64,000 nucleotides of DNA from Octopus vulgaris (Eukaryota), in the NCBI GenBank assembly GCA_951406725.2, contig OX597842.1, forward strand, positions 14,818,001 to 14,882,000, written 5' to 3'. Within the stretch, counting starts at the first letter, position 1, and each line of letters begins with the position of its first letter. Shown here one piece after another: positions 3,001 to 64,000 of this stretch. Position numbers: made by a program.

Positions 3001-6000
3001 ATACTTTGAAAATGTGTAGCGTATGTTCTTAAAACATTTACCACAGAAAATATAACTATAAAAGTAAACTGTAATTTAGATTTTTCTTATGTTCTGTGTA
3101 TTTATAATTCTCAGTGAATTAACATTCACAGACAAACTGAGGATTTTTTGCGTCTTGGCATCTTTTATACAACGGTTTACCCAAAATTTCAGGAAATGAT
3201 GAGATGATATCTATTTTAGGTATTAATAATCCCAGGGTAGCTCGGCCTTAGCAGATTGTGTGTACATACATACGAGGGGGTTCCCAAAAGAAACCGTAAT
3301 TTTGAAATATTATGTTATTCACTTAGTTTTACATATATACACTTTTTTTGTGTTCAAAGTATTCTCCATTTTAATCAATGCGTCGTTCCAAGCGCCTTTT
3401 CAGCCCCTGGAATCCGTGTTGGACATATTCCTAAGTGATGCTTTTTAATGCCCCCATCGATTTCTTTCCTCACTTCCACATCTTCAAATTCCGTAGTACC
3501 AGCTTTCGTCACCAGTGATGACCTTCGAAAAAACATTCGGATTACCTCATAACAGTTCTTCTAGCTCACGACACGCATTCAGCCGTGACTATTTTTGACA
3601 TTCAGTGAGCAAACGAGGCACAGATTTTGCTTGATCGCTTTTCATTCACAATTCCTCGCACAAAATCCATTGGCAGGAGCTCCAGGGCAAAACCGACATT
3701 TCAACAAGTTCATCAATTGCTCAGTGACGCTCCTCCAGGATCAGATCATGAATTTTCCCGATGTTCGGCTGGTCGACGGTTGTCATGAATGAGGTTGGTT
3801 TTCAAGCGACAGGTGACCATTCCTAAATCGTGAAAACTTGTGCCTTGCCCATTGCATCATCCTTGTAATGGGATGCATTAAAATTGTTTCATCTGCAGTT
3901 TTCAGCAGCAGTAAACAGAACTTCACAGAAGCACAATGTTCCATCGTTCCAGCCATTGCAAAAAACATACGAACTGAGCAGAAACACGTCAAAACAAAGA
4001 CGAACTACGCGGCAGTACAACACTACCGGAGAACGCCGGTTGGCTGACTGATGCCTGACAGTCGCATCAAGTGGAGTTTAGCGACGGAAATCTGAACTAC
4101 AATGGGTTTGTCTTACAGAGAAGATTTACGGTTACTTTTGTGTATCCCCTCGTATATAGATATGCATATACATACATACACACAGCAACACACACACGTA
4201 TGTAACGAAATAGAATAGGGATTTGAAATCCGAGCAGATACTTTTACCATCCTGAGGAAATCTTGGGCTGATTAACCAACGAATGTATTATGAAGAAAAT
4301 GCTTCAAGAAATCAATTATGAAGATGTGATATTCTTCGATTTTCATGTTCAACTATTGAGTTAACACACATGCGCATAGAGAAACACACATACATACACA
4401 CATGCTTACATACACACGTGCGTGCATAAACACACGCTTGATTGCTTCATGATCATCCCAGGGTAGTGGTCCCCGAAACGTTCTTCGTTCCCATCATCAT
4501 TACCGAGACTGTTCTCCGCAACACTATTCTTTCTCTCAGCCGTCAACATTGTCAGGTTCATCATCAACTTTATTCATTACCATAGACAACCGCAGTTAGT
4601 TGCACAAATTTGAACATCATCATCATCATCATCAATTATCAATTTCAACAGAACCGTAATCAACTCTTCCTGATTTCCATAGTCTAATTCTTTAGTCGAA
4701 ATATGTTAAACACGTCCAAAAACGTGTTCCATAAAGTTTCATCTCAACTCAATTTTATGTTCCAGGGATTTGAGTTATAATAAACTGAATCAAATAAAAC
4801 CTGAAACCTTCAGAAACCTGACCAGTTTGAAAACACTGTAAGTCAAATCAGTTTTTATTTATAGTATATCATTGCTGCTATGTTTGCATATTTGTAATAT
4901 CGTCCCTTACTTGATTATATGATCCTCCACCTTTCTGTAATTGTGTGTTAAAGAGTGTGAAGCCCCATGTATAAGATATGGCATATAGGAAAGGGTGAGA
5001 ATTGAGAGGAAACTTTTCAGCAAATGCATGTATTTGCGTCTGTGTCCGAAGAAGTGCATTCATATATGAGTGTAATACGATATGCACATTATGTACGGTG
5101 ATTACCACTAGATCGATAGATCGATGCTAATTCACATCATTGAATATTACATGTAATTCTATATTTAGTAGTATATTATTCATACACTAATTCTCCTTCT
5201 TCTCCTTCTTCTTCTTCTTCTTCTTCTTCTTCTTCTTCTTCTTCTTCTTCTTCTTCTTCTTCTTCTTCTTCTTCTTCTTCCCACCGGTAAGAAGACAAGA
5301 ACATGGAGGGCATTCCGGAAGCCGATGTTCTGAGGATGAAGAACTAAACAGCGGTTAATATTACTGATGTAAGAGTGGTCTTACTTTGGTTACTTAAGCA
5401 TCAAAAAGTGGGAGTTGTTAGGATTGAAAAATTTTCTGGTTCTAAAATGAAAAATAATAGTCTTTTAAATGCAGTCCTAGATATACACGGGATCTACTTT
5501 CTCCTAGAGCGATGTTCTTCTTCAAAAGTGACTTCCTTCATGATCAAAAGAAAACAGAAGAGTATTCTTTATGGCTGCCAGAATCATTTGATTTTTAGAT
5601 ATTTTTGTGTAAAAAGATGTTGGACTTTATTCAAGAGACAACTTTGAATTTCTTGTCCGGCATTTATGATATTCTATCATTTAATGCAATCTGTTCCCAT
5701 CTCTATGACTTTACTTCAGCCAATAGATTAAATCTGAGCTGAGATGTTTTGACTGTTAAAACTGCCATAGCACTGGATATGATTTGAGCGTGGATCCTGT
5801 GACTATGAGAGGGGAAAATTGATTTGGGCTGCATTTGAGAAGTTGGTATTAGTTTCTGCTTGTAGTACCTCAGTGTGTGTGAAAGATATGACACAGTTAT
5901 TAGCATGTCGCTGCTCTATCATAATGTGATTGGTTCAGTTCATGAACCAAGCTCGGTGTTTGCGACGTTGATCAAGGTTGATTCAGTCTACTTAGTTGTA

Positions 6001-63000: not shown

Positions 63001-64000
63001 AATCTTCATAAATATCATTAACGTCGTATTCACCATCACCACTATTATAATTATCGTCATCAGTATCGTTGTCACGGATTTTACCTCCTTCATAAGAAAC
63101 AATATTAACTTCATCAACATCATCACCATCCTTCTTTACACAGCCGTTTCCTTAGATTTACCCACACCACCATGAACACCTCCACTCCCACTCTGTTCCG
63201 CCGCTTCCTCATCCTGGCATTCTCAAGATTAACATCATCTCCATTCTAGGTTCCTGCTCCACCAAATAGTAATTGTTCAACAATAATATTTTACATTCAA
63301 TCATAAAACACATCTATACATTTTCTAATCATCTAAAATTCTATTTTACAGACATTTCGTGGATAATAATATTTTACAATAATACTCATCCCTACGTTAC
63401 CTTATCAGCCAAACTTTTATTTTACAGATTTTTGCATAGAAACAATATCGACAAAATTGAATTAGGGACATTCGATGATCTGTTCAGGTTAACACATCTG
63501 TAAGTTGCAAAAGTCTTGTTGATAACATTTCACTGACGATATATTACTAAACATTTAAAATATTCCCATTTTCTATCACGTCCCGACCTTGGCTTCCTCA
63601 ATATTATCACACTTTCTCGATAGAAATAGGAGAATTTGGAGTCTGTAAATATGATTATTATTATTATTATTAATATTATTATTATTATTATTATTATTAT
63701 TATTATTATTATTATTATTATTATTATTATTATTATTATTATTATTATTATTATTTTCATTATTATTATCATCATCATTATTATTATTATTTTTTTTTCT
63801 TCTTATTATCATTATTATCATTATTACTATTATTAGCATTATTATTATTTTTGTTATTATTATTATTGTTATTACATTTATCATTATCATTATAACATCT
63901 TTGTTATCAAACCTACAACCAAATATTCGTCTCTTCTGTTTCATCATCTTATTCATTACTAGGACCATCACATCTTCCACCTGTTCTACCTCCACTTTTA

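Follow-up and report, generated by a model that had tools for sequence, protein, structure and literature searches.

What kind of gene carries the same small leucine-rich repeat (LRR) exon over and over, and what happens to the copies once they have been made? The question is raised by 64,000 nucleotides of the Octopus vulgaris genome (assembly GCA_951406725.2, contig OX597842.1, positions 14,818,001 to 14,882,000 of the forward strand), the whole stretch that was analyzed and that we call the window. It is occupied by a 59-kb run of small exons on the + strand, each encoding one LRR. We propose, with a probability of roughly 60%, that this run is an internal stretch of one large + strand gene and that it encodes the growing and diversifying LRR solenoid of an extracellular LRR-adhesion G protein-coupled receptor (GPCR). 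Judged from sequence, the product is probably an octopus cell-surface receptor. The main new result is that divergence between young copies is biased to the exons and concentrated at their exposed codons.

A homologous 72-nt unit was found at each of 23 starts, always on the + strand and with an open offset-1 frame that reads xLxxNxIxxIKxxTFxNLSSLTx. The original prediction had listed 23 such units with one LRR each, and two scans agree with it. The first used a nucleotide profile built from the intact 19 together with the flanking splice sites. Applied to the window at E ≤ 10, it gave 33 matches, 23 of which were the known units (E 3.5e-6 to 4e-26, all on the + strand); the remaining 10 were weak (E 0.31 to 6) and comprised seven occurrences of a 34-nt relic, two sites at 42418 and 52008, and one minus-strand match. 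The second was a blind scan of both strands of the window for AG, 72 nt with an open frame, and GTAAG. It returned 20 sites on the + strand, namely, 19 LRR units and one chance site at 19062, and two sites on the - strand.

Intact units, defined by AG, exactly 72 nt, and GTAAG, account for 19 of the 23, which is the split into 19 intact and four damaged units proposed earlier and the one-LRR-per-exon architecture with phase-2 introns. The donor is GTAAGT in 18 of them and GTAAGC in one, and every intact unit has a polypyrimidine tract, AG, and GTAAG in the same phase and on the same strand. The introns range from 287 nt to 15.9 kb and split a leucine codon as CT/A or CT/G. With a GTAAG donor in phase 2, reading on past any intact exon gives Leu and then an in-frame TAA (e.g., at 4839-4841); retention of any intron would thus end the protein at once.

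Five intact exons lie in the first half of the window, at 4766-4837 (DLSYNKLNQIKPETFRNLTSLKT; AG/GTAAGT, open frame, LRR_8 E 7.9e-5), 20727-20798, 22443-22514, 27824-27895, and 28954-29025. The others fall into four types. Type C is represented by an intact second copy at 52223-52294, which has the GTAAGC donor, and type D by copies 1 and 2 at 42992-43063 and 52582-52653. Type-A exons are located at 43902-43973, 46442-46513, 53474-53545, 56057-56128, and 61815-61886; the last of these is a third copy, in which the scaffold Phe has been replaced by Ile. Type-B exons are located at 45480-45551, 48000-48071, 55077-55148, 57612-57683, 60829-60900 (a third copy), and 63428-63499 (the last exon in the window). 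The four damaged units, again on the + strand, are at 32070-32141 (acceptor TT, conserved Asn lost, donor GTAAGT kept), 32700-32771 (donor GTCTGC, conserved Asn changed to Tyr), 39276-39347 (acceptor AA, donor TTAAGT), and 42633-42704 (copy 1 of type C, dead through its donor ATAAGC). The first of these had been given a start at 32095, but its footprint is better placed at 32070.

The peptides of the 19 intact units are all distinct, in line with the previous claim, and each is a 24-residue LRR. L6, N9, L22, and L25 are invariant among them, F19 is present in 18 of 19, and entropy is highest at positions 5, 7, 8, and 27. Pfam LRR_8 was matched by 9 of 10 single-exon peptides tested (E 8e-5 to 0.034), with all matches below the gathering score, as expected for one repeat; the tenth peptide gave no match. 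A profile of the 19 exon peptides matched 19 PDB sequences at E ≤ 1e-3, of which 10 are named variable lymphocyte receptor (VLR), the others being LRRC4, a designed LRR, a Toll-like receptor (TLR), and six RBC36/Tn4-22/O13 chains. Both consensus and period are those of the typical 24-residue extracellular LRR (LRR_8/LRR_1), the class to which the repeats belong.

The weak 34-nt profile matches (ctattttacagACATTTCG...) consist of the acceptor and the first ~20 nt of an LRR exon. They are located 89 nt upstream of type-B exons or of their duplicated upstream block, at 45391-45424, 47911-47944, 54988-55021, 57523-57556, 60019-60052, 60740-60773, and 63339-63372. Such a relic could be a decoy acceptor or the leftover of a partial exon duplication.

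How the array was assembled was read from self-alignment of the window. A 9.7-kb block on the + strand occurs as copy 1 at 39919-49622 and copy 2 at 49506-59217, 97.8% identical overall. It contains an LTR-retroelement fragment, six exons in the order C, D, A, B, A, B, and a reverse transcriptase (RT) fragment, and the 2.5-kb A-B modules nested in it are 93 to 95% alike. Both ends of the block fall in (TCT)n microsatellites, which fits unequal crossing-over. Partial further copies follow on the + strand at 58647-63893: 58647-60067 aligns to 44014-45439 (97.5%), 60065-62489 to 44715-47117 (97.7%), 60065-62482 to 54312-56725 (98.3%), and 62271-63893 to 44332-45929 (93.9%). The youngest event is a 721-nt tandem duplication with 99.3% identity at 59344-60788 (+ strand; 59344-60067 and 60065-60788), with no exon inside. 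It copied a stretch upstream of a B exon only, and the module at 58647-60067 was left without a B exon.

Older units also share their flanks. The exon at 27824 is an old duplicate of that at 22443, with flanks that align at ~75%, and the flanks of the damaged unit at 32700 align with those of type A at 75%. The layers therefore show that the whole array arose by serial duplication of exon plus intron. They span from ~25% down to 0.7% divergence. The description of the locus as actively expanding was fair. Furthermore, the window ends inside a further module, as had been noted, with 63650-64000 aligning to the stretch before the type-A exon at 61815.

The fate of the copies was followed mainly in the aligned 9.7-kb copies, with intron counted outside microsatellites. 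The six exon pairs differ by 19 substitutions in 432 positions (4.4%) and the intron by 50 in 7381 (0.68%), so that the exons changed 6.5 times faster (Fisher p = 3.1e-9). In the 300-nt exon flanks, the divergence is not raised (14/2667, 0.52%). None of the 18 gap events between the copies, six of which lie outside microsatellites, is in an exon. Sliding a 72-nt window along the intron gave 0 of 6284 positions with at least four differences, compared to seven, four, three, two, two, and one differences in the six exon pairs, and a Mann-Whitney test of the six exons against 95 non-overlapping intron windows gave p = 1.8e-6. The excess persisted when neighboring changes were merged into events (13/432 in exons versus 43/7381 in introns, p = 8e-6).

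Within the exons, the changes are not spread evenly. Nei-Gojobori counts, added exon by exon, yielded 17 nonsynonymous differences (Nd) over 328.3 sites and two synonymous differences (Sd) over 85.7 sites (ratio of the two proportions, pN/pS, 2.2). Just five codons, x5, x7, and x8 of one repeat and x2 and x3 of the next, account for 15 of the 17 nonsynonymous changes. At these codons, 15 differences over 72 sites correspond to a pN of 0.208 versus 0.0068 for the intron (p = 2e-17), i.e., replacement at ~30 times the intronic substitution rate, while the other 18 codons, with two differences over 256 sites (pN 0.0078), are at the intron rate. In the established LRR structure, residues x2, x3, x5, x7, and x8 of LxxLxLxxN point into the solvent from the concave beta-sheet. 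The same set of five positions is described as positively selected in brown-alga LRR arrays in the available text of Teng et al. 2024 (PMC11378527). Taken together, the counts indicate diversifying selection on the concave face, the predicted ligand-binding surface.

Pairs outside the 9.7-kb comparison were also inspected. The exons at 56057 and 61815 differ at 4 of 72 positions and their flanks at 3 of 678; for 55077 and 60829, the values are 3 of 72 and 7 of 600. In old pairs the relation is reversed, with exon divergence of 0.26 to 0.33 versus 0.43 in the flanks, which shows that the scaffold has been constrained over the long term. Among the intact units (171 pairs in all), amino acids differ on average by 0.82 per site in the five exposed positions, compared to 0.44 per site in the rest. 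The most changed of the six pairs (7/72) is 42633-42704 versus 52223-52294, which includes the copy with the dead donor ATAAGC. Since neutral decay at the intron rate predicts ~0.5 changes for this pair, most of its changes predate the loss of the donor, sit in the live copy, or were imported. Thus, the birth, death, and diversification of cassettes suggested before can be traced in nested duplications, in the 4 dead units of 23, and in exons that diverge at concave-face codons.

The assignment of the exons to a receptor family was made by a chain of homology, from searches run exon by exon. A profile of the contiguous window stretches around each exon was compared with 1.84 billion cluster representatives and gave 3384 matches at E ≤ 1e-3; the per-exon comparisons took in the 150 matches listed of these 3384 (P0121 to P0270). 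P0121 was an outlier, with 284.7 bits over 10 stretches versus 180 bits for the next match. It is a 461-aa protein with a signal peptide, an LRRNT, 10 LRRs, a Cys cluster, and a 130-aa tail, and it has no transmembrane (TM) segment. Also among the 150 matches listed is P0166, a 133-aa protein with a signal peptide, an LRRNT, and three consecutive LRRs, which are identical to the exons at 48000, 46442, and 20727 at 21, 22, and 21 of 23 residues, respectively. It ends with ...LKTL, as read-through of a CT/GTAAG donor would give (Leu, then TAA), and this sequence suggests a spliced product that retains the intron that follows.

From P0166 the chain leads on to full-length receptors. In local BLAST, its N terminus was 74 to 76% identical to P0233 and P0257, and its signal peptide and LRRNT also matched P0121, P0143, P0179, P0205, and P0231 (E 1e-7 to 6e-15). 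These five proteins have a C-terminal family domain in common with P0185 and P0173; the tail of P0121 matched P0185 (79%), P0205, and P0173. P0173 (1283 aa) contains LRRs, GPS (E 1.2e-13), 7tm_2 (E 1.1e-23), and Death (E 3.3e-6), and P0205 has a weak HRM match (E 7e-4). By way of P0166 and P0173, the window exons thus share N-terminal LRR homology with the LRR-bearing octopus adhesion GPCR group. The original prediction likened the exon architecture to that of LGR/RXFP/GRL101-type ectodomains and some other LRR genes. The nearest full-length relatives are not rhodopsin-type GPCRs of that kind; they combine LRRNT, LRRs, and LRRCT with GPS, 7tm_2, and Death.

Some of the relatives are of interest in themselves. 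In P0173, a single chain combines an adhesion GPCR and a cytoplasmic Death domain, which is an unusual pairing. In P0257 (301 aa), RT_RNaseH (E 7e-23) is located between the LRRNT and the LRRs; an intronic retroelement was probably incorporated into the gene model or transcript, which illustrates how such introns confuse annotation. TIR was found neither in the window nor in the 18 relatives scanned with Pfam. A word-index search with the 76-aa ORF (open reading frame) around exon 48000 gave no match, but since it also missed P0166, which has many 5-residue words in common with the query, we attach no weight to it. An Atlas lookup with P0121 returned generic LRR look-alikes at 0.87, which we regard as a lead only.

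Several points weigh against an LRR-adhesion GPCR with a diversifying arc. The substitutions are few (19), and the five-codon class was spotted by eye before it was tested, although it is the textbook exposed set and the exon-versus-intron test is independent of it. In the young copies, the 18 scaffold codons change at the intron rate, so that purifying selection is evident for old units only. GPS and 7tm_2 were seen in the relative P0173 and not in the window, and the assignment therefore rests on library proteins. The repeat order of P0166 (B, A, 20727-like) is absent from the window, which makes it the product of a close paralogue or orthologue and not of this stretch; it also shows that exon modules were shuffled between arrays. 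Furthermore, the relatives listed have 3 to 12 matched LRR stretches versus 19 intact exons here in an array that continues. Either the array is atypical, or not all exons are used together.

With the family assignment resting on such a chain, the same array could instead encode a secreted LRR-only protein or another LRR receptor (TLR-, LRIG-, Slit-, or LGR-like). We consider this unlikely, but it deserves serious attention. The window has no seven-transmembrane (7TM) or GPS exon, P0121 and P0166 end without a TM segment, and P0121 matches LRRC15, TLR3, IGFALS, LGR4/5, LRIG1, and VLR about equally. Moreover, an LGR-like protein with LRRs and 7tm_1 (P0164) is among the 150 matches listed. However, P0164 fits one exon type only, at 17 of 23 residues, whereas P0166 fits three exons at 21 to 22 of 23, and the P0166/P0121 family connects, through its non-LRR parts, to GPS, 7tm_2, and Death. 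The end of P0166, corresponding to read-through of GTAAG, may also mean that this protein is a truncated form.

The 0.68% intron divergence raises the question of whether the youngest layer is real, because at this level an assembler could have set two haplotypes in tandem, in which case the differences between the two 9.7-kb copies would be allelic. The junction is within a (TCT)n microsatellite, a kind of sequence that often misleads assemblers. We nevertheless regard such an artifact as rather improbable. The B-A pair exists in three copies of at least 97.5% identity (45480/55077/60829 and 46442/56057/61815) with distinct junctions, and the older layers, with 4 to 7% and ~25% divergence, cannot be haplotypes. 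Even if the 9.7-kb copies were haplotypes, the same exposed-site excess would remain and would then reflect selection on alleles, either balancing or diversifying.

Exon-biased divergence would also result from ectopic gene conversion by diverged LRR exons at other genomic sites, since only the exons share homology between distant paralogues, and paralogues outside the window may have served as the source. The changes are indeed clustered, with adjacent double or triple substitutions in four of the six exon pairs, and P0166 testifies to near-identical exons in another order at another locus or in another genome. Within the window, no donor is evident for most of the changed clusters, and most derived k-mers are single copy. 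In addition, five of the six pairs show no imported synonymous differences (Sd 0), and the 300-nt flanks are not raised (14/2667). Conversion would still require preferential retention at exposed codons, and we hold it improbable as the explanation of the pattern.

That the array is a decaying, unexpressed pseudogene or a functionless by-product of segmental duplication is very improbable. It would account for the four dead units, for the scaffold codons of the young copies changing at the intron rate, and for the Phe lost from unit 61815. However, old units whose flanks are near saturation (0.43) keep their frame, AG/GTAAG, and LRR scaffold, with exon divergence of 0.26 to 0.33, and the 30-fold replacement excess at five codons with no exon indels is beyond neutral decay; moreover, the protein library contains a close relative in spliced form. 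Finally, germline donor cassettes for somatic assembly in the lamprey VLR fashion, an analogy drawn in the original prediction, would fit numerous units that are all different and closest to VLR LRRV modules in PDB, but this reading is almost certainly wrong, because VLR donor cassettes lack splice signals whereas each intact unit here is an ordinary spliceable exon with polypyrimidine tract, AG, and consensus GTAAG in one phase and on one strand, and because partial or reversed cassettes are few (three small relic sets, one weak minus-strand match, and unit 32070).

We return to the extracellular LRR-adhesion GPCR as the preferred reading. Growth of the solenoid can be read from the window: tandem duplication of exon-plus-intron modules lengthens it by two to six exons at once, as fits unequal crossing-over in the microsatellite-rich introns. 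After duplication, the scaffold Leu, Asn, and Phe stay, while the exposed positions are replaced fast. Some units die without a frame break, since every exon is symmetric (72 nt, phase 2-2). The family plan, as we infer it, would comprise a signal peptide, LRRNT, LRRs, an LRRCT-like Cys cluster, a family-specific domain, (HRM), GPS, 7tm_2, and Death. Ligand capture by the LRR arc would be passed on via the GAIN/7TM module, and a longer, diversifying arc would be predicted to alter what the receptor binds. The ligand may be microbial, chemotactile, or a cell-surface molecule, and the role may be immune, chemosensory, or one in neural adhesion.

Whether all exons enter one transcript is a separate matter. 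The consensus donors (GTAAG in 19 of 19) argue for constitutive exon use, whereas 19 or more LRRs versus stretches of 3 to 12 in the relatives argue that not all exons need be in one isoform. A bolder version of the preferred reading would be an octopus germline-diversifying LRR/adhesion-GPCR/Death receptor whose arc is rebuilt within short evolutionary times by exon amplification and positive selection, with combinatorial display; we think it improbable. Under it, the symmetric exons could be included combinatorially, and intron retention at any exon would release a truncated soluble form consisting of signal peptide, LRRNT, and n LRRs, ending as P0166 does. Cells or individuals could then show different LRR solenoids, a Dscam- or VLR-like logic achieved via splicing and copy number variation.

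The surroundings of the exons were searched for other parts of a gene. Three routes (Cys-pattern regular expressions, Pfam on 20 long ORFs, and tblastn with the non-LRR parts of the nearest relatives) all failed to reveal an exon for LRRNT, LRRCT, LDLa, TM, or another domain in the window, in agreement with the earlier statement that the window has no cap or other domain exon. Pfam and the Cys patterns returned only transposon domains and microsatellite artifacts; there was no convincing LDLa in the window, the few pattern matches being Cys-rich microsatellite translations. When the N- and C-terminal parts of P0121, P0166, and P0185 were compared with the window by tblastn, only the LRR units and chance matches with E > 0.3 were obtained, the best chance match (243-320) having no ATG and internal stops. 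Consistently, no GPS, 7tm_2, or Death exon was detected within the window, and none of its long ORFs is a 7TM or ROC/COR ORF. RNA families (Rfam) and tRNAs were not found in the window either.

The introns are rich in trinucleotide microsatellites (44 TRF rows) and carry transposon remains, which are mostly antisense to the LRR exons. A long interspersed nuclear element (LINE) endonuclease is located at 17105-17848 (- strand), and a long terminal repeat (LTR)-type gag-protease-RT at 40200-41470 (- strand), with a second occurrence in the duplicate block. GIY-YIG (Penelope-like) ORFs are present at 29526-29966 (- strand) and 10810-11130 (+ strand). An ORF of 181 aa at 48507-49052 (- strand) encodes an RT C-terminal part; 823 of 850 candidates matched it at E ≤ 0.001, the best match being a UniRef protein of Octopus bimaculoides with 84% identity and the next best having 66%. 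By itself, this match supports an octopus-like genome; an Atlas lookup with an RT ORF gave nothing narrower than Eukaryota. A transposon-borne repeat was considered as the identity of the array and rejected.

Some further repeats were noted. Inverted repeats of 365 nt (93% identity) at 30253-30617 and 31610-31975 enclose an element of ~1.7 kb, which has + strand ORFs without a Pfam match and is adjoined by the GIY-YIG ORF at 29526-29966. A 1.7-kb direct repeat (89% identity; 1004-2726 and 5284-6975) lies on both sides of the exon at 4766. It lacks LRR units, its ORFs match no Pfam domain, and it probably represents two copies of an unclassified interspersed repeat. The base composition of the window is asymmetric (T 23525, A 17675, C 13495, and G 9305; GC skew to -0.46), most strongly so between 20000 and 64000, largely because the (TTC)n, (TCT)n, and (ATT)n arrays share one orientation.

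Diversification of the LRR concave face is central to plant, lamprey, and brown-alga immunity. To our knowledge, cephalopods have no adaptive immunity and few TLRs. If the gene is expressed as an LRR-adhesion GPCR with a Death domain, serial amplification of its exons would be a candidate way for a cephalopod to widen its repertoire for microbial, chemotactile, or cell-surface ligands. If true, it would also account, at the level of exons, for the branch-wise positive selection reported in the octopus-specific adhesion-GPCR expansion. In any case, the locus is a compact natural experiment on the growth rate of an LRR solenoid. In the literature accessible as full text (subscription-only papers excepted), we came across no animal LRR gene described as combining amplification at the exon level with positive selection at specific sites.

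Several known systems share parts of this picture. In LGR, glycoprotein-hormone, and relaxin receptor ectodomains, typical LRRs are encoded one per ~72-nt phase-2 exon. One LRR per ~72-nt phase-2 exon is also described for gonadotropin receptors in the available text of PMC11378527. LGR-type genes thus share the exon architecture, and the P0121 family matches LGR4/5 at E 1e-41 to 1e-50; unlike the array in the window, they are conserved, with a fixed exon number and a rhodopsin-type 7TM. An ordinary conserved LGR or Slit gene was considered for the locus and rejected. Lamprey VLRs resemble the array in their 24-residue LRRV-type repeats, which gave the best PDB matches to the exon profile, and their variability is concentrated at concave beta-strand positions. 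Their diversity is somatic and drawn from non-spliced donor cassettes, whereas here it is in the germline and in exons.

The brown-alga ROCO arrays come closer. In the available text of Teng et al. (PMC11378527), they consist, like the array in the window, of 72-bp phase-2 exons with one LRR each, undergo intragenic tandem duplication or shuffling, and have positively selected concave-face sites; they are proposed as variable recognition receptors. The same text documents alternative splicing for them, whereas our data are genomic sequence. The ROCO proteins are cytoplasmic LRR-ROC-COR GTPases of a stramenopile, in contrast to an animal array whose relatives have a signal peptide and LRRNT/LRRCT caps. 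The LRR arrays of Tetrahymena, as far as the available part of PMC6564038 describes them, likewise have exons of equal length and an extreme phase-2 bias, and they underwent recurrent clonal expansions by ectopic recombination. They differ in their 90-bp unit, in belonging to a ciliate, and in comprising thousands of genes.

The octopus-specific adhesion-GPCR expansion of Ritschard et al. 2019 (PMC6408891), termed "group 3", has LRRs in 5 of 22 sequences according to the available text. In O. bimaculoides, according to the same text, they are expressed mainly in axial nerve cord, suckers, and skin; in C. minor, gills are the main site. The domain set of the expansion is also that of the library relatives of the window exons; the window itself has LRR exons alone. 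The expansion is under branch-level positive selection with no site-level signal, and neither positively selected sites nor exon-level LRR amplification is described in that part of the paper. We conclude that the system closest in family to the array is the octopus adhesion-GPCR expansion and that the closest in kind are the ROCO and Tetrahymena arrays.

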